A DNA stretch of 64,000 nucleotides from Squalus acanthias (lineage: Eukaryota): positions 62,001 to 126,000 of the forward strand of contig JASTWF010000088.1 in NCBI GenBank assembly GCA_030390025.1. The letters run 5' to 3'. The notes beneath the pieces are model-generated. The model was not told where the DNA came from and did not search any database. It saw only the letters and a list, made by a program, of their open reading frames with translations. Of this stretch, positions 11,319 through 60,239 are shown in pieces (the stretch's first letter is position 1; every line of letters begins with the position of its first letter). The translations under genes were made by a program, and so were the position numbers.

Positions 11319-11600
11319 TTCACCCTGATGTTTCTGTGTACTCTGAAGACCTTGTAGAATGGGGACGGTCCAACACGTTGATCTGTCTGGCTGATGGATT
11401 CTACCCTCCGCACATCACCATGGAGTGGAGAAGAAACAATGAACCCATGACTGATGGAAACTACATCACAGAGTTCTATGTTAAAGAGGATTTTTCGTAC
11501 CGGAGATTCTCGTACCTGAGCATTGTCCCGAGTCCTGGAGACATGTACTCCTGTCATGTGAAGCATGAGAGCCTGGAGGAGCCAACTACTGTATTCTGGG
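11319..11600 (+). CDS. MHC class II alpha chain, alpha-2 (Ig C1) exon
   Basis: 282-bp phase-1 exon between tttcacag and gtcagt; VHPDVSVYSEDLVEWGRSNTLICLADGFYPP...W...YSCHVKHESL..VFW, typical of shark class II alpha. Confidence 0.93.
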
Positions 11601-12715: not shown

Positions 12716-12861
12716 ATCAGGAAGTACCTGAGGAAAAGTCTGGTCCTGGGACAGTGATCTGTGCTCTGGGACTCACTCTGGGAATCATCAGTGCTGTTGT
12801 AGGGATCATCTTACTGATCAAAGAGAGACAGCGGCTGCAAGCTCAGCAACAGGGCATCTAA
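12716..12861 (+). CDS. MHC class II alpha chain, connecting peptide/TM/cytoplasmic exon
   Basis: Acceptor ttgttatacag; DQEVPEEKSGPGTVICALGLTLGIISAVVGIILLIKERQRLQAQQQGI*; in phase with the previous exon; donor gg|gtaagt 2 nt after the stop. Confidence 0.93.
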
Positions 12862-26049: not shown

Positions 26050-26350
26050 GATTCACAGAATCCCCACAGTGCAGATACAGGCCATTTCGGCCCATCGAGC
26101 CTGCACCGACACATATCCCACCCTATCCCCGTAACCCCACGTATTTAATCCCCTTAACCCTAAGGGTCAATTTATCATAGCCAAATCAACCTAACCTGCA
26201 CATCTTTGGACTGTGGGAGGAAACCGGAGCACCCGGAGGAAACCCACGCAGACACGGGGAGAATGTGCAAACTCCACACAGACAGTCACCCGGGGCCGGA
26301 TTCGAACCCGGGTCCCTGGTGCTGTGAGGCAACAGTGCTAACCATGTTGC
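26050..26350 (-). mobile_element. HE1/V-SINE
   Basis: V-domain ggaggaaaccggagcacccggaggaaacccacgcagacacggggagaatgtgcaaactccacacagac; B-box ggttcgaatcc on the - strand. Confidence 0.8.
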
Positions 26351-26473
26351 CCTCAATTATCACACGTCATTGTAAGGTCTCTAAGTGTCACTGCTATCCT
26401 CCTCAAAAGGTCCTTCCCTAGGGTGCTTATGGACATAACTTTCTGCCCACAACATCCATGATAATACTCCTTT

Positions 26474-27025
26474 TGTTGTGGAGAAAATTAGATTCTCAGA
26501 GTCTGTGTAAAGTCCAAAAACACATAGTTTATTGACAAAGTACTTTGGGAGAAGGAGTCAAAGGTCCCCGTGACCTAATGTAACCTCCTCTCATCTAACC
26601 TTTGGTTATTACGGCTTATATTCAGTATTTCTGGCTACATGCCATCATACATCGATTTCCATCCAATTACATTGCATTACATTAATCACCTGATTATATT
26701 TTGCCTTATTTATATTTATTTGGCAACAATCATAAAAGCAGTTACATCTTGTTATGCTTTTTTTGATCAAGGTTAATTTCACAATTTACTACTGTATGTT
26801 ATCTGTGATTGGCACCGTGCCTATGGTTTCTAGCTAACTTTGTAAAAGGCCTCTTTCAATACCTTCCAGTAGACACTGAATCCCACACTGAATCCTCCCC
26901 AAGAGTCTATTTGGCAGCTGTAGTCGTATCTATTCCTTATCTTGTTTTGCAAAACCTTCACTGCACATGGTTTTATTACGAATTCTGCAGAAATTGAATT
27001 TAACCATTTCAAATTAACCCTTTCA
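26474..27025 (-). repeat. ERV 3' LTR (552 bp)
   Basis: - strand TGAAAGGG...CAACA; AATAAA (tttatt at 26528); preceded by PPT aaacaggagggac (27026-27038). Confidence 0.95.
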
Positions 27026-27198
27026 GTCCCTCCTGTTTGGTCCCGGATCAAGCTTTTTGTCCCGGGAACCAATTACCTTGCCTTTGTTACCATCCCCGGG
27101 GTTATAACCCTGTATTGATGGTTTAGGATCCCTGTCCTGAGGACCCGTCCTTGTTTCTCTCTGCATCGGATAGGATGGGTTCAGTGTTTTATTCTTTG

Positions 27199-28776
27199 TT
27201 ACATAAAAGTGCCATCTCCTTCCTCCTCCCATAGCAGCATCATGGGGGCCACTTTTGCTGCCCCCACAATTGATTGTTTACACACGCATTTTAATAGTAA
27301 TATTATAGAATACATAATCAAGATTACAATGAAGAACAAAATCAATCCTTGTGCTATTGATGTCCCCAACATCCCTAGCCACCTAGTTGCCCAGCTCCAG
27401 AGGGTAAGTGCTGGAGGTTGCTTTAATTTCTTTATCTCCTGTTGTATATGCTCAGCCAGATTAGTTATATTTTCTGAGTTGTCTGGAATGTAGGTACAAC
27501 ATTCTGACCCTATTATTGCGCACGTTCCTCCTTCTTTGGCCAGAAGGTAATCGAGGGCCATCCTATTCTGAAGGGTTACTGTTCTTAAAGCGACCATCTC
27601 CGCATTAACGTGTCTCAAAGCTTCGGCTGTGTCGTTGGCTACTTGCTCTAACACCGCCGCTATGTTAATAGATTCTCTTGCTAACTTCCCCGATCCATAC
27701 CAGGGGAAGGCAATAGCGAAGCACCTTTCGGTTTCTGTGATTGCTCTTTTCGTGCGCAAAGTTAGGGTTTTAGTAATTCGAGTATACGGGATTACATATC
27801 CCATGTAACATGACCCTGTCCAGGACTGGGGCAACCATGGATATGCCTTGTGGCCGCATATAAAATAGGTACCGTTATAGGCGGTGAGGGATTGTACTGT
27901 TTCGGGGCTCCATCTCTGTATGAAACTACTGCCACTATTGGTGAGATTTTTGAACGAGAGTCTGGAACTGTTGGCGTTCTTATTTAAGTTCCAAGACTGG
28001 GAGCAACGACTCCATCCCATCTCTGTCCCCTTTTCTCCTTTCTTTAGGTTCCTGATCATGCATATCGCTCCCTGGGGTCTACCTACCCCTGAGGTATTTG
28101 TTAACATCAAAGACGGGGGTGGTTGAGTACGATTGTATTTGGGCTGATACCACCCCTGGAAGGTGGTCAGGTTGTAACCTGACGATTGCCATTCCTTTTT
28201 ATCCCCACTCACATCCACCTTATAGGTCCCTCCTTTAGTTTGAGCTCCCATCCTGAGACCATTCCTGGAAGAGTTTTGATTTAAATACCATGCTGCCATC
28301 TCTGACTCATTAAACGGTATTGGTCTTAAAGGGATCCCTTCCTGTGCATGTATAGGAACGTGTACACATACCCAACATTTAGATACATTACTTCGTTTTG
28401 CATAAGTATAAGACATATACAGAAATGTGTTTACATTTAATTCTCGTTTCAATCATCTGTTTGATTTCTCTTTTTGATATTTCTGGGCTGTGGGACACCG
28501 TAAGTCAACTAGGCAAGGAGTATCCCCGCATGGGACAGTCCAATTACTCCTGCCAGTTATATAAGTTCTTGAACCTTTGGTAAGCCGGGCTGTAGTGTTG
28601 GTTTCTCGCTCCAGCCTCCACTCCTCTCCGTCTCTTTCATCAGAGGCTGGGCAGTAAATCGTATCTTGGTCACACAATCTTATTGGATCTTGTCTCCGAA
28701 GAAGGCACTTGTATTTCAACGAGGCAATGTCCGTAGCGCATATTGCGATTACACTAATACACATAAGCAATTTCAT
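27199..28776 (-). pseudogene. env: ERV env, about 525 codons, one in-frame TGA at 28453-28455
   Basis: Signal peptide MKLLMCISVIAICA, CWVC (CXXC), RTKR furin site, ISD LQNRMALDYLLA, CX6CC (CAIIGSECC) and TM helix; the two ORF-track pieces are in the same frame. Confidence 0.9.
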
Positions 28777-28879
28777 CTTATTACTCTAAATTAACAACGT
28801 CCCAAAGGCTATATCGCCAACCTAACTATTTGTTGCTTGTAGATTCTGTTCTTCCTGTGAGGGTGTAATAATACAATTG

Positions 28880-29161
28880 TTAGTTTGGTTCTCCGATCAC
28901 AACCATTTGGATTTCCTCCCTTACTACCGGTCGGAGTTGATGTTGGCGGGACTGTTCCCATACATACTTCAGGATATAACCTAAGGTGTATCCTATTAGA
29001 AAAATGCATATAGTCCAAACCAGCGCTTGTACCAGCGCCCATTCGGATTCTTTATACTGTCTGGCATACTCTTCACTTTCTGTGAACGGTATTTGTTCTG
29101 GTGTAGCCATTTCTATGTTTGTGAAGGGTTGTAGGCTTTTAACTGTGTCCAGTGCTTCCAT
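28880..29161 (-). CDS. Putative ERV accessory single-pass membrane protein (76-93 aa)
   Basis: ATGs at 29161 and 29110 in good Kozak context; hydrophobic WALVQALVWTICIFLIGYTLGYILKYVW; fills the pol-env gap. Confidence 0.55.
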   Translation of the reverse strand: MEALDTVKSLQPFTNIEMATPEQIPFTESEEYARQYKESEWALVQALVWTICIFLIGYTLGYILKYVWEQSRQHQLRPVVREEIQMVVIGEPN

Positions 29162-32100
29162 CGTCCCATGCCCTTTATATCAATGCAAGCACACGTATCT
29201 CCGCTGATAAGGATTTGATATGGCCCCGACCATTTAGGGGCAAATGTGATTCCTGGCTTCCCTGGCAAGCTTTTAACCATGACCTTAGTCCCTGCCGGGG
29301 GAACGTATGGAAGCGCAGTTAATTCCCAATCCTTGTCTTTCTCTTCCTGCCTTTCCCGAGTTTGTTGTCGCATCTCTTTTAACTGATTACTTAATTCCAA
29401 GACGTACCGGCGGAGTCTATCTTTTAAAGGTCCTACGTCCTCCCCTCCGGTTATTATACCGTGTGGAAGCCGCATTGCCCTTCCTGTCATTAGCTCATAT
29501 GGTGATAAGCCTGTGGTCCGGTTTGGAGTTGCTCTTAATTTCATTAACACGGTTGGTAGCATATCTACCCATCGTTGATGCTTTTCCCCTAATGCCTTAG
29601 CTAAGGCTGTTTTCAGGGTTCGATTCATTCTCTCCACCATCCCGGAACTCTGAGGATGGTAGGGGATATGAAACTTCTGTTTGATGCCCATCCATGCGCA
29701 TATCTGTTTAACTATGGCTCCTGTAAAGTGAGTGCCCTGATCTGAGTCAATTTGAATTGGTACTCCCCATCTGGGAATTATTTCCTCTGCCATTATTCGT
29801 GCTACAGTGGTGGCAGTGCAATTCCGGGTGGGGAACGCTTCGACCCACCTTGTGAATTGGTCTATAATCACCAGGCAGTACCTGCGTCCCCTTGAGGTGG
29901 GTAGTGGCCCAGTGAAGTCTATCTGCATGTTCTCCCATGGTCCCCTTGGTCTCGGCTGGTGGGCCATTCGTATCTTAACTGGCCGTCCCGGATTATGTTG
30001 GGCACACGTTATGCATCTCTGGCAATGTTTCGCCACATCTCTTCCCAACCCCGGCCACCACCATTCCTTGCCTATTAATTCAATCATTGATCCCCGCCCG
30101 GTATGGGCATTTCCATGATGTAATTCTAAGAGTAACTGCCTAATACAGGTAGGGGCTATCACCTTTCCCTCTTTTCGCCATATGGCCTCTCTATCCGGTC
30201 TCCCTCCTGCATGGTACCATTCCTGCCTTTCTCCTTCTGAGGTATCTTTGTGTAGTTTACTAATATTTATTTCTTCCACCTGAACACTGGCTACACTTTC
30301 TTCGATGGTCTCTTGTTCGAGAGCCTGTTGTGCAGCCAGGTCGGCTGCATGATTACCCTCCTGTTCTATACTCTGTATCTTTTGGTGCGCTTTTATTTTC
30401 ATTACTGCTGCCTGCGTTGGGGCTTTTGCCGCTTCTAGGAGGTCTTCTATACGTTGTTGGTGCTTAATATGATCCCCTCCTGTTGTTACGAATCCCCTCC
30501 TTCCCCAAGCTGTCATGTAATCATGTACTACCCCAAACGCATATCTACTATCTGTGTAGATGTTTACAGTTCTGTCTTTAGCTAATTCCAGGGCTTTCGT
30601 TAGGGCTACTATCTCTGCCACTTGTGCCGAGAGTCCCCCGTCTAACCTTCCAGATAACTCAGTTTCCAACTGGCCATTAACAACTGCCCACCCGGTTCGT
30701 GGTGTTCCGTTAATATACTTTCGGGATCCATCCACATAAAGGGTAAGCTGAGCTTCCTCCAGTAGTTCATCCTGTATTGGGCTACTATCAACTTCGTCAT
30801 CTACATCCGCACATTCATGGGGTTCTCCCATCCCTAGAATACCTTCTGCTGGGTTCTCCCCGGTGTCCCGAACGATTTTTACTGATTCATCTTTGGGTAT
30901 CAATACAGCTTCCCATCGCGCCCTACGCATGTTTGACACTGACCTCAATTTGTTGTTATTTAACATTTCTACCAACGTATGTTTGGTGTGCAGGGTGATA
31001 TCCCCGGTCATTACTGTGGGTTCGCTCACCCTCACAGCCCATGCTGCACAATCTAATGCTGCTACACACCGTGACAGCCCTGCAGCCACCGGTGACTGCT
31101 GGGTGGAATAGTATGCTACCGGTCGTTTTCTGTCTCCATGCTGCTGGGTAACGACTGCAGCATAGAATCCTCCCTCATTTTCACAGTGTATATGGAATGG
31201 CTTTTTCATATCGGGTAGCCCGAGTCCCGGGGCTGTTATCAATGCCTGTTTTAATTTTCCATATGCTTCCTGTTGCTCATGTCCCCATTCAATGAGGGTG
31301 TTACTGGGGTTTCCCCCTTTTACGAGCCTCTGAATCGGTTCCGCTATCGCTGCGAAATTAGGTATAAAGTTCCTACTATAATTAAAAAGACCCAGGACTT
31401 TTCGGACTCCTCTAACTGAGACCGGTCGAGGCATCTCTTGTATTGCCTTTCGACGGTCACTAGGCATTGTCCTGATCCCCTGGGATATTTGTTGTCCCAA
31501 GTAAGTAACAATGCTCTGTCCAATCTGAGCCTTCCTGGGGTTTACTTTAAATCCACCCTTTTCTAGTGCTTGTAGGATTACACCCAGGGCTGCAGCATGC
31601 CCCTTTTCATCCTCTGATGCTATTAACAGATCATCTACATATTGTAATTCAGTGCTACGATACGGGGAAAGATCTATAGGTTCTAATAATGAACTCATTA
31701 CCCGATGAAATATTGCTGGACTATTGTGGAATCCCTGTGGCAATCGGGTCCACGTGTACTGTTTATTCCCCACGGTGAAGGCGAACTTACTCTGGGACTC
31801 CGGGTCCAAGGGCAAGGACCAGAATCCGTTGGCTATGTCCAATACTGTGAATATTTTGTGCTCCATACTCAAACCGTTTAAAATAGTGGCCGGGCTGGCC
31901 ACTATTGGGTGTAATTTTGGAGTTACCTTATTTAGGGCTGTGTAGTCAATAGTCAATCGATATGACCCATCTGGCTTCTTTACTGGCCACGCAGGGGAAT
32001 TGGTTGTACTTTCTGTTGCCCTAATTATTCCTCTTTCCTCCAAATCCCGTACTATCTTTAACACAGCTTCCTGTGCTTCTGGCTTAATGGGATATTGTCT

Positions 32101-32658
32101 GTGTGATTTATGCTCCGGACCGGGAACTATGATAGGGTCCACCTCTGCCAACCCAGTATCCTGCTTTGAGACTGCCCACACTGTCTTGATGTTCTCACAT
32201 ATAGCCCCATACGTCCCGTCTTTCTGACTCCAGTCTCGTTTTAATGTTTTTGCACTCCCCACCTTAGCTAGGTGACCCAAAGGTTTTGTTAATCCTGTCT
32301 TGTTTCCGTCTGTTTGGGACCAAATTAATTTATTCAGTATTGGACTTACCAGTATATTATATTCTCTTAACAGATCTATTCCTAAAATAGTTCCTTCATT
32401 ATTGGGGCATACATAAAATTGCGCGGGGAGTAATCGTCCCGCTATCTCTAATACCTGCACTTCACTTTTATATGCAGAGATTCGTTCCCCTCCTAATCCT
32501 GATATATATATTTTGTGTTTGGTGACGGGAAGAGGCAGGTCCGTTATTGACACTGCTGCTCCCGTGTCTACCAGCATATCGCACTGCCGGCCCCCTATCA
32601 GCACTGGCACATAGACACGGTCGTCATGCTCCTCTCCTCCCGCGGGGGCCGCTGCTAG
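29113..32658 (-). CDS. pol: ERV pro-pol (PR-RT-RNase H-IN), uninterrupted and in frame with gag
   Basis: LVDTGA, LPQGF, YVDD, LYVDGS, HHCC zinc domain, DFTG/DSDQG/ERMN DDE triad, KWSGPY. Confidence 0.95.
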   Translation of the reverse strand, partial: LAAAPAGGEEHDDRVYVPVLIGGRQCDMLVDTGAAVSITDLPLPVTKHKIYISGLGGERISAYKSEVQVLEIAGRLLPAQFYVCPNNEGTILGIDLLREYNILVSPILNKLIWSQTDGNKTGLTKPLGHLAKVGSAKTLKRDWSQKDGTYGAICENIKTVWAVSKQDTGLAEVDPIIVPGPEHKSHRQYPIKPEAQEAVLKIVRDLEERGIIRATESTTNSPAWPVKKPDGSYRLTIDYTALNKVTPKLHPIVASPATILNGLSMEHKIFTVLDIANGFWSLPLDPESQSKFAFTVGNKQYTWTRLPQGFHNSPAIFHRVMSSLLEPIDLSPYRSTELQYVDDLLIASEDEKGHAAALGVILQALEKGGFKVNPRKAQIGQSIVTYLGQQISQGIRTMPSDRRKAIQEMPRPVSVRGVRKVLGLFNYSRNFIPNFAAIAEPIQRLVKGGNPSNTLIEWGHEQQEAYGKLKQALITAPGLGLPDMKKPFHIHCENEGGFYAAVVTQQHGDRKRPVAYYSTQQSPVAAGLSRCVAALDCAAWAVRVSEPTVMTGDITLHTKHTLVEMLNNNKLRSVSNMRRARWEAVLIPKDESVKIVRDTGENPAEGILGMGEPHECADVDDEVDSSPIQDELLEEAQLTLYVDGSRKYINGTPRTGWAVVNGQLETELSGRLDGGLSAQVAEIVALTKALELAKDRTVNIYTDSRYAFGVVHDYMTAWGRRGFVTTGGDHIKHQQRIEDLLEAAKAPTQAAVMKIKAHQKIQSIEQEGNHAADLAAQQALEQETIEESVASVQVEEINISKLHKDTSEGERQEWYHAGGRPDREAIWRKEGKVIAPTCIRQLLLELHHGNAHTGRGSMIELIGKEWWWPGLGRDVAKHCQRCITCAQHNPGRPVKIRMAHQPRPRGPWENMQIDFTGPLPTSRGRRYCLVIIDQFTRWVEAFPTRNCTATTVARIMAEEIIPRWGVPIQIDSDQGTHFTGAIVKQICAWMGIKQKFHIPYHPQSSGMVERMNRTLKTALAKALGEKHQRWVDMLPTVLMKLRATPNRTTGLSPYELMTGRAMRLPHGIITGGEDVGPLKDRLRRYVLELSNQLKEMRQQTRERQEEKDKDWELTALPYVPPAGTKVMVKSLPGKPGITFAPKWSGPYQILISGDTCACIDIKGMGRWKHWTQLKAYNPSQT

Positions 32659-34827
32659 TCAGCGGTCATTTCCCTGGTCCTTGACAAGTTGCAAAAACCT
32701 CTGATATTCTTCGGGGCTCAGTCTAGGACCCTGATTTCCCGACCCCATATTTTCCCGCTTTGGGCCCCAGCAGTTGTTGGCGCGGTGTCCCGGCTTGCCG
32801 CAATTACCGCAAGTCGGGATACTTTGTTTGGGACTCCTACACTCCTTAGCCATATGTCCCATCTTCCCACAATTGAAACACGCCCCTCTCTTTGGCTGGG
32901 AGTTTCTTTGCTGAACTCCGACTGCTCCCACCTTTTCTTGTTTAATAACCTTTCCTCGCTCTCCTTCTGTTCCATCTATCTGACAAGCCCATTTAACTAC
33001 CGCATCGTAAGTGTCAGCCGTAACTACCCCCATTTTTAGTATCTTTTGGTGTTCTGAGGACAGACGATCTTTGTACATTTTTACAAATACCGGGTCGTCC
33101 CTTTGGGGGTTTTCCTGTCCCGAGGATTCCTGATATTGGTACCAGAGCCATTCCCCATACGAATTTGAATTTTCTCCCTTCTTCTGTTGTATCTGCATTA
33201 TTAAACCCCAATTTGGTGACGCAGCCCCCATCGTTTCCTGGACCGCTCTCTTGAACTCACTCCTCATTGTGTCCCGATTGGCTTGGGTTTCACTTGCTGT
33301 TGGACACCAAGTGCCATTTCGGAAATTATCTGGTAATGCATTCCACTTGTCTCTTGGGCACGTGGCACGAACTATCTGGTGGACATCCCTTTCATGCATA
33401 TTATGTATATCGTATAATTCTTCCAATTTTTCCCAAAATTCCACATTTCGTTTTCTTGGCTGTAATGTTCCCAAATCTTGATTTATCATTTGTTTTTCGG
33501 CGGGGGTAAATGCCTGATACCTAATTCTTGCGGCACGAGGACTACCTCCCACAGTCCGTATTATGGGTGCTGCCTTTTTAGTGATTGGCCCAAAAATTCG
33601 TGAGGAAGCCTTCGTGCGAGGGTAAGGCTTCCCCGCGATCTCTCTCTGCGCGTTGGCTTTTTCAGTCCCAGCTCACACGAACTTGATGTTCTGGACAGCA
33701 GCTGTGCAGGGCATCCGTATCCCACAGGCGCAGTTAGTTCGTGCGAGCTGTGGGATCACGTGACTCAGTTAGAGCCAATGGCAGCACACCATCTTTCATT
33801 CATAGCTTTCACATAAGTGCTGTGAAAGCTATGAATACTATACCCCCCCAAAAGAACAGCTAAACCTCAATTAAATTTAAAAAAAAACCATCACATTAAT
33901 AAAATAAGTATAGTTAAATAAATTAACTATTTTAAACAAAAAATTAAATTTTTGAAAAAATTTAAAATCTTTTAAAAAGTTATAAAAATAAACTTACCTG
34001 TCTTTAAAGTCTCTAAAAAAGATATACCTGTTAAAAAAAATTCAAAAAAATACTTAATTAACTACTTACCTTGTTAAAAGAGGGTCTTACGCCTCTTTTT
34101 TTTATGTGTAAAATCTTCCATACTTACCTGCGCGTTCAAAGCACTAAGTGCACTGCGTGCGCGCAGCCTGTAGTGCGCACACGGTTCACTTAGGAACCGC
34201 CCCCTTTTGCATTCACCAAGTGCCGGTTTTCAGCGCATGCGCAGTGCATGCAGAAAACCGGCAATTGGAGAAAGAATACGCGAGAGTACACAGTGCGTAC
34301 TCTCGCGTATCAACACTAATTTTTGGGCCATTATCTTTTCATCTTCATCATCCCCTTCGCTAAAATTATCTACCGGGGGTGCCGAAGCTGATACGGCATA
34401 TGGGGGGGGGGGGTATGTCATTTTCCTCACCATATCTTCTAACCCCCGCGCCAGCACTCAAGCCTGCCTGTTGTTCATTCCAGAGTTCACTTTTATCCAT
34501 TCTATATCCATCCTTTAATTTCTGTCCTGTCCTTAAGTATTCATTCTCCTGTTGTAGCTCTAAGATTTTCTCATTGTGTCTCATCAAGCCCACATGTAGA
34601 TCTCGCACCTTCCTGGTCACTACGACCAGTTGGTGTACCAAGATCACTCCTGCTTTCTTAATCTTTTTCTGTTTCTGTCTCATCCACCACTCCCTCTGAG
34701 TGACAGGTGACTGGAGCGGATCCCATCCGTCCTTAATCATCTTTTCCACCATACCCTTCCGGTCATCTGCATAGAACCTAGTAAGGGACCCCTCTGGCCC
34801 CCAGTCTAGTCCTTTCCCCGATGCCAT
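32659..34827 (-). pseudogene. gag: ERV gag, 473 aa after removing the MITE and one G from the G12 run
   Basis: PPPY late domain, MHR-like QIQQKKGENSNSY and two CCHC knuckles; the frame is restored across the MITE. Confidence 0.9.
33587..34329. mobile_element. Harbinger-type MITE, copy 2, inserted in gag
   Basis: TIRs ggcccaaaaatt / aatttttgggcc; ATT TSD. Confidence 0.9.
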
Positions 34828-35519
34828 CTATAGTCCGACATCAGTCCTCCACTGCGTCCCTCTAATCGGGCTGGTCTAGGAAACCTAGTCTGACGTCAGT
34901 CTTACCCTACTTCTGCTGCGTCTCGCTAGGCGACAGAGTCTCCTTTGAATAAAAAGTTCATGACACTTTGGTTACTCAATCACACCTCTGACTTTGCCTC
35001 CCGGAGTGCTTTGGAGCCTCTACGCCTACTTTATGGTCCTGGCCTTCACGTGGGGCATTTGCCCTCTTAATAACCGGCCTGAGGCTAGGCATATGAGACA
35101 GGCACTCCCCTTGTCCGCTGGGCTTAATCAGGTCTTACCCTTCTCGGCATATATCGCTACAACAGTTCTGCCTTAATTACTTTATATCATTCAAATGTCC
35201 TCAAATTGTGTACTCTTACTTTCATTCAATCCACACACTCAGTTAATCCTGGCCTTCGTGTGGGGCATTTGCCATCTTAACAACCAGCTCAGGCTGAGTG
35301 TGCCTTATTCAACATCCACAGTCACCATTTACTCACTTTCTCTCTCTCTCTCTTTCTCACATCTACTTACTGTGTGTTTTTCACTTCCCACAGCTCTTTC
35401 TCATTCGGAATGCTACGATGCTGTTACTCCGCGTTCCCAGATGACACAATTTTTGGACGGTCAAAATTTTGACTGCTCGTCCGAGTTCACTGGTACAAAC
35501 GGTCTGTCAACCTCGCAGC

Positions 35520-35537
35520 ACCCTGCTCGCAGCGCCA
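35520..35537 (-). promoter_or_regulatory. Primer-binding site, tRNA-Ser-like
   Basis: TGGCGCTGCGAGCAGGGT 3 nt after the 5' LTR; complementary to ACCCTGCTCGCAGCGCCA, close to the vertebrate tRNA-Ser 3' end as recalled. Confidence 0.8.
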
Positions 35538-35540
35538 AAT

Positions 35541-36093
35541 TGTTGTGGAGAAAATTAGATTCTCAGAGTCTGTGTAAAGTCCAAAAACACATAGTTTATT
35601 GACAAAGTACTTTGGGAGAAGGAGTCAAAGGTCCCCGTGACCTAATGTAACCTCCTCTCATCTAACCTTTGGTTATTACGGCTTATATTCAGTATTTCTG
35701 GCTACATGCCATCATACATCGATTTCCATCCAATTACATTGCATTACATTAATCACCTGATTATATTTTTGCCTTATTTATATTTATTTGGCAACAATCA
35801 TAAAAGCAGTTACATCTTGTTATGCTTTTTTTGATCAAGGTTAATTTCACAATTTACTACTGTATGTTATCTGTGATTGGCACCGTGCCTATGGTTTCTA
35901 GCTAACTTTGTAAAAGGCCTCTTTCAATACCTTCCAGTAGACACTGAATCCCACACTGAATCCTCCCCAAGAGTCTATTTGGCAGCTGTAGTCGTATCTA
36001 TTCCTTATCTTGTTTTGCAAAACCTTCACTGCACATGGTTTTATTATGAATTCTGCAGAAATTGAATTTAACCATTTCAAATTAACCCTTTCA
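35541..36093 (-). repeat. ERV 5' LTR (553 bp)
   Basis: Same as 26474-27025 except one T indel and one C/T change seen by eye. Confidence 0.95.
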
Positions 36094-37519
36094 CCTTTAT
36101 TATTGTTTATTTTTAGCTGTTCTCGGTTTGGCCCTCTTCTTGGACTCGGTCTTTATTGGAGGTGATCAGTCTCCAATTTCCCCACTTACAACAACCTCCC
36201 CTTTTCTAGGATGCCTATAAAATATTGAGGACTATGACTAGCACACTGATCTCCCTGTCACGTTAAAACACCATACAACTTGGTATCTGCTGTACTCCCT
36301 TATCAAATTGGATATGTCTCTCATGTGTATGCGTTCTTTATCCTGAGTCCTGCTGCGTTGCCTTGGTTTGTCGACGGTGAAAGTAGTCGACCTCCTGTCC
36401 CAGAGCTCATTCGTGATGAGTTCTTGATGGTTGAGGTTCGACTTCAGTCCAGTCTCGATGCCCCCCGTTTTCAAAAAGCAACAAGTTCAGGTCCTTCACT
36501 CGGCTAACCAAATGTTGTTTTAAACAATCCTCCATTGTTCACTTGAGTCATAACAAATTCAGTCTTATGGTTATAATCACTTTATTTTTTCTACTTTAAC
36601 ATAAACAATCTAAAAGCGGAGTATAACTTCTTCAGAGTAGAATGCAGTTTACAAGCAGCGTTTTGTCAGCAGATTTGAACATAGGCATGCGCTCATCCGT
36701 GTAGATTTCTCTCTCCTAAAACTTAGCACAAAAGCTTTTTTTATTCACTGATCTCTTTATCAAACCGGAAATGGCCTTGCCTTATATTGTCGTCTCTGGT
36801 CAATGCATCATCCTTCAGCCGATTCTTATGCACACAAGTTTACATTTCTTGACAACATTCGTATATCAACATTTTTGGCAATGTACACCAACATCCCTTT
36901 GCATAGGTTGCAATGCCCTTGTTGATCATCCTATTGGCAGGAATCCCAGTTTCAGTCCCAAGGGCCTGAAACTGGTCACATGAACAAACTGGCTAAGTGA
37001 AGTCTGTATCTCTCTCCCTTCAATGATGCCAATCACTTTTTTTTGTTCTATATTGAATGAGCTAAAAATGAACACCTTTCAGAAGCCAAATTAGCCAAGT
37101 TCCAGATGCAAAGTATTCATTTATTACCTCAGCCGTGCCCTCTGCCTCCACAGGAAGATCTCCTTTTTGGTCCCTAATCGGCCCCACCCTTTTTTTTGAC
37201 TACCTTTTTACTATTTATATGTTTATAAAATACTTTTGTGTTCTCTTTTATGTTACCTGCAAGTCTAGTCTCATGCACTCTCCTTGCCTCTTTTTTCCTT
37301 TTTTAGTTCTCCTCTGCACTTTCTGTATTCTGCTTGTTTCTCTACTGTATTATGAACCTGACATTTATCATAAGCCTCCTTTTTCTGTTTCATTTTAATC
37401 TTTATAGCTTGGAGTTTCCATTCAATTGTGCTGGATTTTTCAGCGCAATTCACCCAAAATCAGCGTAACCGGCGCAAAAGATTGCGGAATTTTAAGCGCA
37501 AGTTACGTTCAACGCAACT

Positions 37520-39241: not shown

Positions 39242-40913
39242 TTAGAACTGCAGTCTGATGAGGTGGTCATGGACTGCCCTTCCGGAAGGCCAATTGAGTG
39301 GCTGCCTCCTCCCTCGCTCCTGTTCCTCCTCCTCCTGCTCCATGTCCTCCTCATCTTCCTCTACCACCTCCTCATCCTGCTTCTCTACCTTTTCCTCCTC
39401 CTGAGGTGGTCCCACAATCCCTGCTGGCAAGGGCTGGGCCCACATGATGACCAAGTTGTGGAGCATGCAGCAGACCATCACAAAATGGGACACCCGCTCA
39501 GCCGAGTACTGGAGGGCTCCTCCCAAGTGGTCAAGGCAGCAGAACCGTTGCTTGAGCACCTCGATGGTCTGCTCAATGATGTTCCTGGTGGCGGTATGGC
39601 TCTCATTATATGATTGCTGAGTAGGAGTGTTGGGGTTGCGGAGGGGAGTCATGAGCCAGGTGGAGAGCGGATAGCCCTTGTCTCTGACCAGCTAGCCGCA
39701 AGCTTGATGTGGTGGCTGGAAGAGTGCTGGCACACCAGTCTGGCGAAGGATGAAGGCATCGTGGCTGCTGCCAGGTTAGCTGTCTGTGGTTGCACACACA
39801 CTCCACATTAAGTGAGTGGTAGCCTTTGCGGTTATGGAAGATCTGAGGGTTGTTATGCGGTGCCCGCAAAGCCACATGGGTGCAGTCAATGGCACCCTGC
39901 ACCATGGGGAAGCCCGCTATCCTGGCAAAGCCACATGCACATTTGTCCTGCTTCTCTCTGGTGATGGGGAAGGAAATGTCGTCCCTTCTCCTACTGTAGA
40001 GAGCCTCTGTGACCTCCGGGATGCAGCGATGGACGGTGAACTGCGAGATGTTAGCTATATCTCCTGTTGCAGACTGGAAGGATCTGGTGGTGAAGAAATC
40101 GAGGGCGACGATGACCTTGACTGCCACTGAAAGAGCTGTGGTCACCCTGATCTGAGGCTCAAGGTCTGGTTGCAGGAGGTGGCAGAGTTCTGTGACCACC
40201 TCCTTGCTGAAGCGGAGCCTTCTAATACACTGCTCCTGGCTTAATTGGAGGTAGGAGAAGTGCTGTCGGAATACCCTCGGAGGGTAAGGCCTTCTGTTGA
40301 GAGCCCTGATGGCCCTCCTCCTCCCTCTGACCACATGTTCCAATCTTTCTCGCTGCCTCCGCTCCCTCTGCCGTAGATCCTGGAGGGTGAGGTCGACTGT
40401 CAGTACAGCCCCCATTAATGTAACCAAGTGTAGCACTTTGATATATTGTGAGAATAAATGTAACTAATTTTTAGTAGCCACAACACTCCAGAGACTAAAC
40501 AACCTTTAAATGATTGCATTCAACTGTTGCACAATGTGAAACTGACACGGAAGCAGTGAAACAGCACGAACTTGAGAGCTGCAACTCATGATCCCTTTAA
40601 GTAGCGCTCCTGGAGCTGGCTACCGACTGCTTCATGCCTCCTCTCCCTGTTGCTGCCGGGGCGAGGCGCTAAGGCAGGGGGGCGACAATGAATTTTGCAG
40701 ATCGGGCGCCCAGTGAACATTGCACGCTCACTGACGTCACGATCTGCCTGGTGCTAAAGCCCCAGGCGCTAACTGTTAGTGGCAGCACTAAGGGGCGACT
40801 GGATTTGACGTGCAGCGCTGGATTCGCCTCGCCCCGGTACTACTGCATCAGCGCACCATTAGCGCCCCTGTCAGGTGCTAATGGGAGGAGCTAACCAACT
40901 GAATTTTTCCCCC
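39242..40913 (-). mobile_element. Harbinger transposon A, decayed HARBI1-like transposase
   Basis: GFPMVQGAIDCTHV, NRKGYHSLN and [16 protein letters not shown], frameshifted; terminal gggggaaaaatt at about 40902-40913. Confidence 0.85.
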
Positions 40914-41112
40914 TTGAATTCTTAAAACTGCTGGATCTCTTGCTATGCCATTAACCTCCATACAGTCTGGGAAACCGTGGTCCCCTGTTTATAAGAAAAA
41001 AAACAACAGAGAATCCACTGTGGCTCTACTTAAGAGCCCAAGGGGTTAATTTGTCAAATCATACTTTCCTTCTGTCACCATGGGGAAATATCCACTTAAA
41101 TTAAGAAACTTA

Positions 41113-44100
41113 GGGGGAGAAATTGGGTACCTTAGCGCCTCCCGTCACTTGCCGGTTTGCGGCGACACTAACTACTACCGTCACGCCCTCCTGCAGCCGG
41201 AGATCGTAACGTCATCCAGCCGCGCATCACCCCGGTAACGCCCCGGACCGGAAATTCATTCTCGACCCCTGCCTCAGCACCTGCCATTAGGAACGGCAAG
41301 TAGAGGAGGCAGTTTGCAGTCAGCTGGAAGCTGCAGGAGTGCTATTTAAAGGAGTGAACTTTCAGGTTTTTTTAAGTCAGCAAACAATGCTGCCTTGTCA
41401 CTTTGACAGAAGCAGACAGGTGTTTTGACCCATTTGAGGTTTTCCTACTTGAAGGAGTTTTGCTCCAGACAAAAATTTATCAGGTTCATTTGTCTTACTT
41501 TTGATACTGCAACATTTCCAACACTTAATGAGGGCTGTATTGGCACGGGACCTCGCCCTCCAGCGTCACCGTCGGAGGCGGAGAGAAAGATTGGAAAACA
41601 TGGCCAGAGAGAGGAGGGCCAACAGGGCTCTCAACGGGAGACCTTACCCTCCCAGGGTATTCCGGGAGCAGTTCTCCTACAGTCATCTGTCAGAGGAGCA
41701 GTGCCTTAGTGGGCTCCGCTTCAGCAAGGAGGTGGTCACAGAGCTCTGCCACCTCCTGCAGCCGGAGCTCCAGCCTCAGCTCAGGACAAGGACGTCTCTC
41801 TCAGTGGCAGTTAAGGTCACAGTCGCTCTCAATTTCGACGCCAGCGGCTCCTTCCAGGCTTCAACAGGGGATACTGCAAACATTTCACAGTTCGCCGTCC
41901 ATTGCTGCATCCGGGAGGTAACAGACGCTCTCTACAGAAGGAGAAGGGAGTACATATCATTCCCCATCACCAGAGAGAAGCAAGATGAATGCTCATGTGG
42001 CTTTGCAAGAATAGCGGGCTTCCCCATGGTTCAGGGCGCCATTGACTGCACCCACGTGGCATTGCGGCACCTCATCACAATGCAGAGGTGTTCCGCAAAC
42101 ACAAAGGCTACCACTCTCTGAACATGCAGTTGGTGTGCGACCACAGACAGCTCATCCTCGCCGTCAATGCCCGCTATCCTGGCTGCAGCCACGATGCATT
42201 CATCCTGCGATAGTCCCAGCACTGTTCCACCCACCACATGAATCTCATGGCTGGCTGCTCAGAGACAAGGGTTATCCATTCACCACCTGGCTGATGACAC
42301 CCCTCCGCAACCCCAACACTCCTGCTCAGCACGCATACAATGAGAGCCATAGTGCCACCAGGAACCTGATCGAACAGACTATCAGGGTGCTAAAGCAATG
42401 GTTCCGCTGCCTTGACCGCTCTGGAAGAGCCCTGCAGTACTCCCCAATCGAGTCTCCCTTTTCATCGTTGTGTGCTGTATGCTGCACAACCTGGCCATTC
42501 TGAGGGCCCAGCCATTGCCATCAGGGATTGCAGGTCCACCTCAGGAGGCGGAAGAGGGAGAGGAGGAGGAGGTGGAGGATGAAGAGCAGCAGCAACGTAG
42601 GAGGGAGCCACTCAATCTTGCTTCTGTTCATAATCGCCTCATAACACAGCGCTTCCAATAAATGAGATAGCACATGGCATTTGCGCAGCACAACCACATC
42701 ATTACAGACAGCTCGCAGCCCCTATCACCGGGCAAAGGTCAAATGAGAAACATATCAAAATTTGCTACGTCGAAATAAACATTTATTATTCTGCACAACT
42801 CTCTCTTATCAAACACAACCAATAATAAACAAACACAACAATTTATCAACAAACACAACTGGTTCTTAGCAAACGGAACTTATTTCTTACCAAACTGAAC
42901 AATATATTTACAAACACATCAATTTATTTACACATACTCCCCCATTTGCTGTTAACATATTGGCCCAGAAATTAGACTTCGATGGTTGCCGCAGGGGTAA
43001 GGATCCGGCGCGATCCTACCTACCGCGCCTGCCTTTATGTTTCGGGCCCACACGAACTTCTGGTCCTGGGCCTCACCCTGGTGCCGGCGCGCAGTGTGTG
43101 CGTGTCCCAGAGGCGCAGTTAGTTCGATGCGACCTCTGGGATCACGTGGGCCATGGAGAGCCAATGGCAGCACACCATCTTTCATTCATAGATTTGACAG
43201 GAGAACTGTCAAAACTATGAATACAAATTGCCCCCAAAAGAACAGCTAAACCTCAAATAAATTTTAAAAAACCCATCACATTAATAAAATAACTATAGTT
43301 AAATAAATTAACCCCTTTAAACAAAAATTTAAATTTTTGAAAAAATTTAAATTCTTTTTAAAAGTTATAAAAATAAATTTACCTTTCTTTAAAGTCTCTA
43401 AAAAAGATAAACCTGTTGAAAAAAATTTAAAATACTTAATTAACTACTTACCTTGTTAAAAGGGGGTCTTACGCCTCCTTTCTTCATGTGTAAAATCTTC
43501 AATACTTACCCCTCGCGTTGAAACCTGAAAAAATACCTAAGTGTGCTGCGTGCGCACAGCCTGTAGTGCGCATGCGGTTCACTTAGGAACCGCCCCCTTA
43601 GCAATACCGGAAGTGCCGGTTTCCCGCGCATGCGCAGTGCATGCAGGAAACCGGCACTTCGGGACCGAATACGCAAGAGTACACAGTTCGTACTCTCCCG
43701 TATTCAGCCGAAGTTTTGGGCCATTATTTACTGGGCCTTCCTCAATTGATTCCCTCCCTTTTGCACTTCCCCCCTCTCAACCCTACTGCTCCTCCGTAAT
43801 GTGGCCCCAGTAGCTGCAGCAAGGCTGGTCGAAGGCTGCTGAGTCTGGGAGCCAGAGACTGCAGATGGCCTTGCAGGATGCCCTTGACCAGCTCTGGGCC
43901 TGGAAGGCCCGGCTGCAGACTGCACCAACTCTGCATGGGTGGCAGCAGTCTGGGCTGGCTGGGTTACAGGCTGCGGCAAGTGCAATGACGGATTGGCAGT
44001 GGTGGGAACAGGAATGCTGTGATCCTGAGAGAGGACAGCACCTTCCTGCTCGACCGACACACTGCCACACCCCCAGGGAAGAACCACAACATCTGGAGCA

Positions 44101-46554: not shown

Positions 46555-48035
46555 AAAGCAAAATACTGCGGATGCTGGAAATCTGAAATAAAAACAGAAA
46601 ATGCTGGAAATACTCAGCAGGTCAGGCAGCATCTGTGGAGAGAGAAACAGAGTTAGTGTTTCAGGTCGATGACCCTTCTTTAGAACTGGAAAAAGTTGGA
46701 GATGGAACAGGTTTTTAAGCACGTGTAGGAGCAGGGAGAGGGGGGAGGGGAGGAAAGAACAAAAGGGAAGGTCTGTGATAGGCTGGAAGGCAGGAGAGAT
46801 TAAGAGACAAAGGGGATGATGGTGCAAAGCAAAAGGAAATGAGACGAGTTAAGAAACAAAAGATGGCTCCAGATGAAGTAAATGGCAATGGCAGAATGAT
46901 CGACAGCTGCCATGTGAGAGAGAAAAAAAATGGAAAAAATATAGGGGCCGAGGTTATAGTCTGAAATTGTTGAACTCGATGTTTAGTCCAGAAGGCTGTA
47001 AAGTGCCTAATCGAAAGATGAGGTGCTGTTCCTCGAGCTTACGTTGAGCTTCATTGGAACAGTGTAATAGGCCGAGGACGGTGAGGTCAGAGTGGGAGTG
47101 GAGCGGAGAATTAAAGCGACAGGCAACCGGAAGCTCGGGGTCACCCTTGCGGACTGAATGGAGTGTTCTGCAAAGAGATCACCCAATCTGCGTTTGGTCT
47201 CCCCAATGTAGAGGAGACGCATCGTGAGCAGCGAATACACTATACTAAATTGCAAGAAGTACAAGTAAATTGCTGTTTCACCTGGAAGGCGTGTTTGGGG
47301 CCCTGGACAGTGGGAAGGAAGGAGGTAAAAGGGCAGGTGTTGCATCTCCTGCGCTTGCACGTGAAGGTGCTGGGTGAAGGGGAAGGGGTGTTGGGGGTGA
47401 TAGAGGAGTTGATCAGGGTGTCGCGGAGGGAGCGGTCCCTTCGGAATGCTGAAAGGCGAGGTGAGGGGAAGATGTGTTTGGTGGTGGGATCACGCTGGAG
47501 GTGGCGGAAATGGCGGAGGCTGATCCGTTGAATGTGGAGGCTGGTGGGATAAAAGGTGAGGACAAGGGGATCCCTATCGTGGTTCCGGGAGGGAGGGGAA
47601 GGGGTGAGGGCAGAAGTGCGGGAAATGGAATGGACACGTCAAGGACCGTGTCAACCACAGTAGAGGGGAATCCTCCCCTCACCTCCCCTTTCAGCATTCC
47701 GAAGGGACCGCTCCCTCCACAACACCCTGGTCCACTCCTCTTACACCCAACAACACCCCTTCCCCTTCGCCCGGCACCTTCACTTGCAAGCGCAGGAGAT
47801 GCAACACATGCCCTTTTACCTCTTCCCTTCCCACTGTCCAGGGCCCCAAACACTCCTTCCAGGTGAAACAGTGATTTACTTGTACTTCTTGCAATTTAGT
47901 ATACTGTATTCGCTGCTCACGATGCGGTCTCCTCTACATTGGGGATACCAAACGCAGATTGGGTGACCGCTTTGCGGAACACCTCCATTCAGTCCGTAAG
48001 GGTGATCCCGAGCTTCCAGTCGCCTGTCACTTTAA
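46555..48035. mobile_element. Penelope-like element (-) with an inverted partial copy (+, about 47672-48035)
   Basis: GIY-YIG LLYIGETKRRLGD on -; the same segment repeated on +; tail with a degenerate hammerhead at 46651-46689. Confidence 0.8.
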
Positions 48036-48036
48036 T

Positions 48037-49195
48037 TCAGAAGGCCTTTGATAAAGTCCCACATAAGAGGTTAGTGTGCAAAATTAAAGCACATGGGATT
48101 GGGGGTAATATACTGGCATGGATTGAAAATTGGTTAACAGACAGGGAACAGAGAGTAGGAATAAATCGGTTTTTTCGGGGTGGCAGGCAGTGACAAGTGG
48201 GGTACTGCAGGGATCAGTGCTATTCACAATATATATCAATGATTTGAATGAGGGAACCAAATGTAATATTTCCAAGTTTGCTGATGACACGAAACTAGGT
48301 GGGATTGTGAGTTGTGAGGAGGATGTAAAGAGGCTTCAAGGCGATTTAGACAAGTTGAGTGAGTGGGCAAATACATGGCAGATGCAGTATAACGTGGATA
48401 AATGTGAAGTTATCCACTTCGGTAGGAAAAACAGAAAGGCAGAGTATTATTTAAATGGTGATAGATTGGGAAATGTTGATGTACAAAGGGACCTGGGGGT
48501 GTCCTTGTACACCAGTCACTGAAAGCAAACATGCAGGTGCAGCAAGCAGTTAGGAAGGCAAATGGTATGTTGGCCTTCATTGCAAGAGGAACAAGGATGT
48601 CTTACTACAGTTATAGAGGGCCTTGGTGAGACCACACCTGGAGTACTGTGTGCAGTTTTGGTCTCCTTACCTAAGAAAGGATATACTTGCCATAGAGGGA
48701 GTGCAGCGAAGGTTCACCAGACTGATTCCTGGGATGGCAGGACTGTCGTATGAGAGATTGGATCGACTAGGCCTTTATTCACTAGAGTTTAGAAGAATGA
48801 GAGGGGATCTCATTGAAACGTATAAAATTCTGACAGGGCGAGACAGACTGGATGCAGGGAGGATGTTTCCCCTGGCTGGGGGGGTCTAGAACGAGGGGTC
48901 ACAGTCTCAGGATATGGGGTAGAACATTTAGGACTGAGATGAGGAGAAATGTCTTCACTCAGAGGGTGGTGAACCTGTGGAATTTTCTATCACAGAAGGC
49001 TGTGGAGGCCAAGTCACTGAATATATTTAAGAAGGAGATAGATAGATTTCTAGACGCAAAAGGCGTCAAGGAGTATGGGGAGAGAGCGGGAATATGGTAT
49101 TGAGATAGAGGATCAGCCATGATCATATTGAATGGCGGAGTAGGCTCGAAGAGCTGAATGGCCTACTCCTGCTCCTATTTTTCTATGTTTCTATA
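48037..49195 (+). mobile_element. CR1 LINE 3' part
   Basis: [19 protein letters not shown] and 3'UTR. Confidence 0.88.
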
Positions 49196-49803: not shown

Positions 49804-49906
49804 ATGCGGAGATGCCGGTGTTGGACTGGGGTGGACAAATGTGAGAAGTGGCACAACACCAGGTTATAGTCCAACAGCTTTATTTGAAATCACAAGCTTT
49901 CGGAGC
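49804..49906 (-). mobile_element. Terminal segment of a Penelope-type repeat (the Tx1 target), cut within its hammerhead motif
   Basis: - strand gctcc-GAAA-GCTT-gtgatttcaaataaagctgttggactataacctggtgttg...cagtccaacaccggcatc. Confidence 0.6.
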
Positions 49907-50883
49907 TGCTGACTGAGGAGCAGAAGCAGCAGAGTGGTGGTCTCTGTGGCCAGGAAGAGGAGAAGGAGAAGGAGACCAGACAGCAGACCACCACCAACAA
50001 CCAACAACTACAACTGAGGTGCCTGGAGAGAGAGGACAGGAGAGGAGAGGAGAAAGAAAAGGGAAGGCCAAGGCCATCAACAACAGAGGAGAGGCCTTTC
50101 CACACTGCCTCCTCAATTGGCCTCCATTTTAGGAGAGGGAGAGAGGGGAGAAAACAACACAACATCCATCATCTGTTTGGAAGGAGGAAGAAGGAAGGAA
50201 AGAACAGCTACAGGTGGGTGTGATTCTGGGGCACTCTCCCAGAGACTTTGTTTTGTAGGTGGGGGGAGGAAAGAAGAAAAAGAAGAAGGCCGGAACATCC
50301 AAGGGGTGTGTGTGTGTGTGTGTGGCTTCTGTAAAAGCTAGGCCGCACACACCATATTAAACACCCCTTTCCCATTGCCTGACCTGGGGCAGCTGGAGCT
50401 GCCTAGGTGAAGTTCCCCAATTAATTATATCCAATTGGGCATCGTTAAGACCTGGTGCAGGACTGAGCCTGGGCATCTCCAGCTATCCCAGGTGAAGACA
50501 TCTTCTCCCCCCACCAGAAGACCACCACCAAAGACTTTTTTACATCGGAGAGTGCACCCCCCTGCCAACACCCACCCACCCACCATCCTGAGTGGCGACC
50601 CTGCCCTTGCGGCTTCCCTCCTTCCCACCCCCCTCTCTCTCTCTCTCTCTTTGTCTCTTGTCTCTCTCTGCCTCTCTCTCTCTAAGAGGCACCTCATCTA
50701 TTTTTAATTAAGTACCCATTGAGCAGAGGGGAGAAGGCCCCTCTCCCAATTCAATCAACTAAAGGGAGAGGTGTGCCTTCAATTTAAGAGCTCCCTCTGC
50801 TCAGGGAAAAAAAAAAACCGAGGCCATTAACACCTTCAGGCCTGTGACTTGGGGTGAGTGTAGCCCTTAAAGAACCCTCCATT

Positions 50884-53041: not shown

Positions 53042-53066
53042 GTAGAGGTTGCACTATGCTTCTGAG

Positions 53067-60214: not shown

Positions 60215-60239
60215 GTAGAGGTTGCACTATGCTTCTGAG

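Follow-up and report, generated by a model that had tools for sequence, protein, structure and literature searches.

Snakehead retrovirus (SnRV) is the one exogenous member of its clade, and the copies of that clade described from sharks are heavily decayed. Lineage I of the elephant-shark endogenous retroviruses (CmiERV) clusters with SnRV, and the long terminal repeats (LTRs) of described CmiERVs diverge by 2.4% and 3.3% (PMC4422223). A screen of 2,004 genomes found an actively invading endogenous retrovirus (ERV) in 0 of 13 cartilaginous fishes (PMC10435555). We analysed a 64-kb stretch of the Squalus acanthias genome (positions 62,001 to 126,000 of contig JASTWF010000088.1), referred to as the window, which carries a provirus on its minus strand at 26474-36093. 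The provirus is 9,620 bp long, or 8,874 bp without an inserted miniature inverted-repeat transposable element (MITE) and the target-site duplication (TSD) of that MITE. The element is not gamma-like, and sequence comparison makes it probable that it belongs, in clade and in mechanism, to the snakehead-retrovirus-like group (SnRV-like, clade Huo), which is neither class I nor class II. It is a real and well-preserved member of that clade in a shark, and apparently an undescribed one. No description of it was found in the literature searched, a scope that left out most subscription journals and Repbase, and exact sequence look-up of seven window proteins in the protein collection found 0 of 7. 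Published datasets (PMC4299795 Table S2 on TSDs; the data of PMC6001957) may already contain close relatives.

The initial annotation had described a near-intact provirus, and its structural claims hold. Coordinates of provirus features refer to the minus strand, except those of the TSD copies and the MITE, which carry no strand. In the 5' LTR (35541-36093, 553 bp) there are TATA-like boxes, and a poly(A) signal precedes its 3' end by ~55 nt; the 3' LTR lies at 26474-27025 (552 bp). Both are bounded by TG...CA. Of 553 columns the pair differs in 2, through a transition and an indel within a run of T, which amounts to 1 substitution in 552 positions (~0.2%). The provirus is flanked by CCTTT on the left (26469-26473) and on the right (36094-36098); when flank duplications of 3-8 bp were tested, 5 bp was the sole matching length (chance ~0.001). 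An 18-nt primer-binding site (PBS; 35520-35537) is separated from the 5' LTR by a 3-nt spacer. When 2 mismatches are tolerated, its 17-nt core matches the window once; the site is presumably of the tRNA-Ser type. Searches for tRNA genes and Rfam families gave no match within the 64-kb window. The polypurine tract (PPT; 27026-27038), read from the sequence, adjoins the 3' LTR. The leader (34828-35519, ~690 nt) contains six splice-donor-like sites, a longest ATG-initiated open reading frame (ORF) of 38 codons, and a 50-nt block that is duplicated at 35037-35086 and 35247-35295 (86% identity).

Between the leader and the 3' LTR, the internal region has the order gag, pro-pol, env. The 5' part of gag (34330-34827) starts M-A-S at 34827, with no Gly2, and encodes a basic patch and, by a crude score, a heptad-rich, coiled-coil-like stretch; Pfam gave nothing above its cut-off for the Gag N-terminus, and this part is homologous to horn-shark record P0003 (50% over 58 aa). 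The 3' part (32659-33586) encodes the capsid and two CCHC knuckles, both of which fit CX2CX4HX4C, and ends in a TGA stop in the pro-pol frame. The absence of Gly2 and the presence of two knuckles are as originally annotated. Sharing the frame of the gag stop, pro-pol (29113-32658) is open for all 1,181 codons. It has Pfam matches to protease, reverse transcriptase (RT), tether, RNase H and integrase (IN), and all catalytic motifs checked are present (YVDD in RT; HHCC and DDE in IN), as is a GPY-type motif. Pfam gave no match to dUTPase, Gag_p30 or the MLV IN C-terminal domain in the proteins of the element. The predicted fold of 96 nt around the gag stop (z -1.6; equally good in 13 of 200 shuffles) leaves a structural read-through signal unsupported.

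A protein search with Pol returned 183 matches at E<=1e-30, 120 of which were listed. Among those 120, the best named matches are from horn shark (55%) and fathead minnow (51%), followed by frogs (40-41%), coelacanth (38-44%) and REV (37%); some swallow records rank high by E-value at just 33-35% identity. The top two matches (72% and 65%) were not placed in trees, which used a selection of named non-primate records; one primate record and the rest of the named ones were excluded. The RT-tether tree has 39 records. The RNase H, RT-only and IN-only trees start from 33, with 2 of the 33 missing from the RNase H tree and 13 of the 33 from the IN tree. In the RT-tether tree, the window joins horn shark and minnow at 98/94, the frog and coelacanth elements come next, and a nine-row group on the window side is separated from class I at 100/100. 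In this tree, which has no named epsilon row, the class I-like rows from fish and shark lie away from the window. The RT-only and IN-only trees agree with this grouping, and an approximately unbiased (AU) test rejects a tree that forces the window together with five gamma-type rows (p-AU 4.4e-10). For RT, the best named match is fathead minnow (61%), compared to 57% for horn shark and 40% for REV.

The link to SnRV itself comes from reading by eye and from hand counts. In the RT alignment of PMC10435555 (412 invading-ERV, or ERVi, rows and 50 references), the window motif RLPQGFH occurs once, in the SnRV row; DIANGFW occurs only in four green-turtle ERVi rows, and a third motif is absent. Approximate hand counts over 212 trimmed columns, from our own alignment by eye, give RT identities of 52% to turtle Cmyd.ERVi.2, 47% to SnRV, 39% to simian foamy virus and 32% to MuERV-L. 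The RNase H row of SnRV has, by eye, the DGSR, TGWA, SAQVAE-VAL and W-RRG blocks of the window; the RT blocks of the window are missing, by eye, from the rows of WDSV and Xen-1. Lokiretroviruses have an Env that resembles the fusion protein of paramyxo- and pneumoviruses. Their traits were not seen, as the Env is of the TLV_coat type and the loki RT rows differ by eye.

Several results weigh against this placement. SnRV is not among the 120 Pol matches listed, and the trees contain neither it nor ERV-L, ERV4, foamy, named epsilon or loki rows, so that they show only that the element is not class I. RNase H is 42-47% identical to class I records, compared to 26-29% for frog and coelacanth and 50% for minnow, and the RNase H tree puts the window in no starred group. 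SnRV (PMC1224870) and CmiERV lineage I are described with one knuckle each, whereas the window has two. A capsid fold search did not discriminate: the best match, MLV capsid (Z 9.9; root-mean-square deviation 6.2 over 199 residues), was tied with PEG10 and Arc domains. The capsid model, built from the uninterrupted stretch at 32902-33585 with a six-row alignment, has a pLDDT of 66; Foldseek found no PDB match for it at E<=0.001 and three matches in BFVD, led by WEHV2 Gag. The second-best of these is V5NX06, annotated 'ICP4c', of chelonid alphaherpesvirus 5 (E 2e-4; TM-score 0.60), hinting, at the level of a predicted model, at a retroviral capsid-like domain in that turtle herpesvirus protein.

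Relatives of Gag were found in loggerhead turtle, two soles and a characiform (3 of the 10 records looked up were named). Across five named Gag relatives the knuckle counts are 2, 2, 1, 1 and 0, the last record being possibly truncated.

Three lesions, all reported in the initial annotation, interrupt the coding regions in this assembly. A 743-bp MITE with 12-bp terminal inverted repeats and a 3-bp TSD lies in gag at 33587-34329; it is presumed to be Harbinger-like, and a second copy, 85% identical, lies at 42962-43722. The remaining two are a frameshift in gag, at a stretch of 12 consecutive C (34402-34413), and an in-frame stop in env (28453-28455). This copy has therefore lost Gag and Env coding capacity after insertion and makes no virus on its own. 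It should be noted that both homopolymer differences, in the T run of the LTR and the C run of gag, could be sequencing errors, a further point against our interpretation. A fourth lesion, in the major homology region of the capsid, is conceivable: the core motif is kept, and one position is off consensus, though it is also off in 2 of 5 named relatives. The ERVi category of PMC10435555 is defined by identical LTRs and coding regions (gag, pro, pol, env) that are all intact; this copy has two LTR differences and broken gag and env, and falls outside it. Elsewhere in the window there is a MITE-like third partial copy from near 21550, and two inverted, ~80%-identical remnants of a DDE_Tnp_4 (Harbinger-type) transposase at 39367-42578, beside the second MITE copy.

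The env gene (27199-28776) has 525 codons, with the single stop given above. It encodes a signal peptide, a Cys-rich N-terminal domain of ~90 aa, a surface subunit (SU) with CWVC, a furin site, an immunosuppressive domain (ISD) read straight from the translation, CX6CC, a membrane anchor and a short tail of ~25-30 aa. The protein matches TLV_coat in Pfam (2.5e-15), which bears out the gamma-type Env with CXXC, ISD and CX6CC of the earlier description. The Env matches are dominated by sharks. Among the 34 named ones, the N-terminal domain recurs in 2, a sevengill shark record and a catshark record (E<1e-4); it gave no Pfam match above cut-off and no usable ESM Atlas match. In SnRV, the PBS is reportedly of the Arg type and the leader encodes the Env signal peptide. 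The latter arrangement was rejected for the window, given the 38-codon limit on leader ORFs and the hydrophobic N-terminus of env, within which the signal peptide lies.

The pol stop and the env ATG are separated by a 336-nt gap with two overlapping ATG ORFs that the initial annotation had missed. ORF-X (28880-29110, 76 codons) begins 2 nt past the pol stop and encodes one predicted transmembrane helix. ORF-Y (28809-29042, 77 codons) has an N-myristoylation pattern at its start and a basic C-terminus. Both are candidate accessory genes. The likely env splice acceptor (28845-28890, with the site at ~28854) has a branch-point-like motif, and no ATG comes between the putative site and that of env. 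A third candidate, at the 3' end (27023-27232, 69 codons), runs over the end of env in another frame and stops at the LTR edge, the place that the 3'ORF takes in SnRV; it sits within an open frame at 27023-27277, has no Pfam match, is weak, and may be due to chance.

Of 60,000 Markov simulations of the gap, 547 contained one ATG-initiated ORF of 76 or more codons and none contained two. Likewise, no such ORF was found in 26 control tiles from alternative frames of pol and env. ORF-X is also open in sister record P0162, where 73 of 76 residues are identical. The out-of-frame pol end that overlaps it in P0162 is 22/23 identical; with DNA divergence this low, the conservation of ORF-X is weak evidence of selection. 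Three observations count against the ORFs being genes. Two such ORFs were present in 1 of 94 tiles of host flank (at least one in 9 of 94), the conservation of ORF-X in a single close sister is compatible with neutral drift, and ORF-Y has no known homologue by Pfam or exact look-up. Neither ORF matched Pfam above cut-off, and ESM Atlas gave no usable match for ORF-X. Whether at least one small ORF is a real gene is, in our judgement, close to an even question.

The LTRs, TSD, PBS, PPT, gag/pro-pol stop layout, Env type and lesions are seen in the sequence; the mechanism that we propose draws for its steps on knowledge of the family. The element would be a germ-line orthoretroviral provirus of the SnRV-like clade, inserted antisense 13.6 kb downstream of a major histocompatibility complex (MHC) class II alpha gene. 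In the parent virus, reverse transcription would be primed by tRNA-Ser and second-strand synthesis by the PPT, and the integrase would make a 5-bp staggered cut. Gag-Pol would be produced by stop read-through, Gag would reach the membrane by its basic patch and coiled coil in place of myristate, and the two knuckles would package the RNA. Env would be made from an RNA spliced from the leader to 28854 and would serve cell-to-cell infection, and the pol-env gap would probably encode at least one small accessory protein.

Evidence on how the family spread comes from a sister Env, P0121, which is uninterrupted and gap-free over 525 aa and identical at 494 of 524 residues (94%). The 30 differences have a mean BLOSUM score of +0.47, compared to -0.42 to -0.51 in neutral single-base nulls (P 0.0002-0.0024). 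This conservative pattern, a signature of purifying selection, suggests replication that required Env, and spread by infection. However, the differences are evenly spread over SU and the transmembrane subunit (TM), which speaks against this. A more ambitious version of the SnRV-like interpretation is that the locus is a still-polymorphic recent insertion of a complex SnRV-clade shark retrovirus. Such a virus would have an undescribed pol-env accessory cassette (a small membrane protein with a single pass, similar to Vpu in nothing but layout, a basic myristoylated protein, also small, and perhaps the 3' ORF), and intact sisters or an exogenous form would still be circulating in sharks. We consider this possible but doubtful.

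The age of the insertion depends strongly on the rate assumed. One LTR substitution in 552 positions corresponds to 0.9 Myr (0.02-5) at 1e-9 per year, and, with the 2.2e-10 per year that PMC4422223 assumes, to 4.1 Myr (95% 0.1-23). At the shark pedigree rate of 7e-10 per generation, the LTR substitution plus one nonsense change gives 0.6-7.1 million generations. Most likely the insertion dates from between a few hundred thousand and a few tens of millions of years ago; that pol is still open speaks against an age far beyond this. The initial description of the provirus as very young is relative: the LTRs are nearly identical, but one substitution may equal millions of years at shark rates. Its view of a nearly intact provirus that is not of the MLV type is right. 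Preservation is much better than in described shark ERVs, the LTR divergence being some 13-18 times below that of the described CmiERVs (PMC4422223).

It is unlikely, in our estimation, that the insertion is older than it looks, with LTRs homogenised by gene conversion, near-identity that overstates its youth and a lineage long extinct. Three independent lesions and the slow mutation rate of sharks would fit such a history, as would the even spread of the 30 of 524 residue differences in the sister Env. However, the probability that pol would remain stop-free is 0.16 at 1% neutral divergence and 0.03 at 2%, and one nonsense change is in line with the LTR divergence (0.3 expected, range 0.01-1.8). 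The differences in the sister Env are conservative, and the CpG observed/expected ratio is 0.58-0.73 in the 3' part of gag, pol and env, compared to 0.40-0.45 in the flanks (0.30 in the LTR).

The initial annotation had instead proposed a distinct, chondrichthyan-specific retroviral lineage, apart from every described clade. The distance of the named relatives argues for this: 51-55% identity in Pol among the 120 of 183 matches listed, 39-50% in Gag for horn shark as the nearest named record, and 45% (sevengill shark), 54% (horn shark) and 39-45% (catsharks) for the best named Env matches. The window, horn shark and minnow do form their own branch, and CmiERV lineage I, as far as its published description goes, shows neither two knuckles nor the additional domain at the Env N-terminus nor pol-env ORFs. 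Nevertheless, the top named RT match is a teleost at 61%, Gag has relatives in loggerhead turtle, sole and a characiform, and the RT of a green-turtle ERV is ~52% identical. Every hallmark feature has already been described in SnRV-like or class III elements. On sequence identity, the lineage is not restricted to chondrichthyans, with close relatives in a minnow and in sea turtles, and we regard a separate shark lineage as improbable. The locus nests with a described lineage at the level of the clade (CmiERV lineage I) and not at the level of the family. The combination of features that had been called unusual is so only in comparison with MLV, since 5-bp TSDs, a Ser PBS, lack of myristoylation and a class I Env are known from SnRV-like and class III elements.

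Class I membership (gamma or epsilon), or a recombinant carrying a class I RNase H, is highly improbable. The Env type, the read-through stop, the GPY motif, two knuckles like those of epsilonretroviruses and the RNase H identities of 42-47% all point that way, as do MLV/XMRV as the best PDB match for RT and WEHV2 Gag as the top fold match in BFVD. Against it stand the RT and IN trees and the AU test. There is also no Pfam match to Gag_p30 or the MLV IN C-terminal domain, the TSD is 5 bp and not 4 bp, and foamy virus leads the PDB matches for integrase. An RNase H swap with class I, prompted by the identities, was dropped because the split found with RT returns in the unrooted tree of RNase H (91/95) and the SnRV RNase H row shares the blocks of the window, so that no swap is needed.

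The MHC gene that the initial annotation placed next to the provirus is present, but 13.6 kb separate its end (12861) from the element. It is represented on the plus strand by an alpha-type C1-set exon (11319-11600, 282 bp; C1-set 4e-21) and by a last coding exon for the connecting peptide, transmembrane segment and cytoplasmic tail (12716-12861), neither of which is part of the provirus. We take the second exon to be class II alpha, and the gene presumably resembles nurse-shark class II alpha. The PDB matches listed are class II alpha chains, bar chimeric beta-2-microglobulin constructs. A pattern search of the window, of a kind that can miss exons, found no MHC alpha1 or beta-chain exons. 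The alpha2 and transmembrane/tail exons have open frames, the 11 kb upstream are mostly repeats, and the locus could be a gene with a long intron or a gene fragment. Host co-option, either of the Env N-terminal domain as a secreted protein of ~107 aa or of an LTR as a regulator of the MHC gene, is very unlikely: the env stop does fall at the junction of the N-terminal domain and SU proper, downstream of an intact signal peptide, and truncated Env restriction factors are known, but one random stop is expected regardless and the MHC gene is distant, upstream of the provirus and in opposite orientation.

A SnRV-like provirus is the preferred interpretation. A near-intact copy in a shark makes the genome plan of the clade clear, from the TSD and PBS to the knuckles, the layout of Env and the candidate accessory genes, and suggests that Env-dependent spread took place in sharks as late as a few million years ago. 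Should ORF-X and ORF-Y prove real, the retroviruses of sharks, too, have the complexity that accessory genes bring; should the insertion be polymorphic, it marks a haplotype of MHC class II. Retroviral classification is unchanged by these results.

Several other repeats share the window. On the plus strand at 49854-64000 are two tandem non-LTR retrotransposons of ~7.18 kb, 99.2% identical and presumably Tx1-type. ORF1 (50848-52689) is open and has one knuckle, and ORF2 (53046-56966, 1,306 codons) encodes an endonuclease-RT. Both units start at the same ~45-nt motif, suggesting target-specific insertion. With GC of 0.64 and a CpG observed/expected ratio of 0.92, the element is young and possibly active. 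A tRNA-derived short interspersed element at 26060-26350, ~120 bp left of the proviral insertion site, is presumably of a family common in elasmobranchs. Near-palindromic fragments at 47108-48038 and 1409-1901, with arms 90-94% complementary, are presumably Penelope-like. Among the protein matches, P0141 from the hagfish Myxine glutinosa is a class I-type Env relative (34% over 69%); PMC4422223 had reported hagfish to be without retroviruses.

Comparison with known systems was most informative for CmiERV lineage I (elephant shark, scaffold 2; PMC4422223). It shares with the window the 3-nt LTR-PBS spacer, a Ser-type PBS (as presumptively assigned here), the lack of Gly2, a TGA stop between gag and pol, repeated leader blocks and a similar PPT end. 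By hand translation, RT is ~54% identical over 146 residues and the Env TM ~68% over 109. Unlike the window, the published copy has one knuckle, no ORF-sized pol-env gap, no extra Env N-terminal domain, other blocks in RNase H, LTRs that diverge by 3.3%, and frames in visible decay. Judged by RT identity, knuckles, RNase H blocks and the gap, the two are different families. The nearest RTs, from green-turtle Cmyd.ERVi.2 (PMC10435555; ~52% by hand), and from the unannotated elements P0003 of horn shark (57%) and P0004 of fathead minnow (61%), are likewise of different families given identities of just 52-61%, although P0003 shares the Gag N-terminal block and two knuckles with the window.

More distant systems share parts of the same plan. 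XtERV-S of Xenopus (PMC8278194) combines a Ser PBS and a class I TM with CWIC and ISD; its gag and pol are separated by an in-frame stop, a myristoylation signal is absent, and two close copies have 5-bp TSDs; XtERV-S and the ERV-L/ERV-S (ERV3) elements differ from the window in their ERV-L-type RT, their dUTPase and, as described, their lack of knuckles and GPY/F. ERV3 and ERV4 both make 5-bp TSDs, and GPY/F and zinc fingers are possible in SnRV/Ovex1-related ERVs (PMC4299795). ERV4 of crocodilians and turtles also has an env and no dUTPase, but is described without knuckles or GPY/F (PMC4299795). MLV-type gammaretroviruses have the CXXC/ISD/CX6CC Env, read-through, the GPY motif and the tether and RNase H, but differ in their 4-bp TSD (PMC4299795), single knuckle, myristoylated Gag and Gag_p30 domain. 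Epsilonretroviruses share the two nucleocapsid knuckles (PMC1224870).

SnRV itself resembles the window in its unmyristoylated Gag with a polybasic region and coiled coil (PMC2717909), in its gag/pol read-through stop layout (PMC1224870; read-through at our locus is predicted), and, should the candidates of the window be genes, in having small accessory ORFs, which SnRV has on spliced RNAs, and an ORF over the end of env. It differs in length (11.2 kb compared to 8.9 kb without the MITE), in its 136-aa Env tail (~25-30 aa in the window) and in a 3'ORF of 205 codons, compared to at most 69 here. The feature combination is thus ordinary for the SnRV-like clade, and what remains of interest is the preservation of this copy and its candidate accessory ORFs; it also brings two knuckles into a group whose described members have zero or one.

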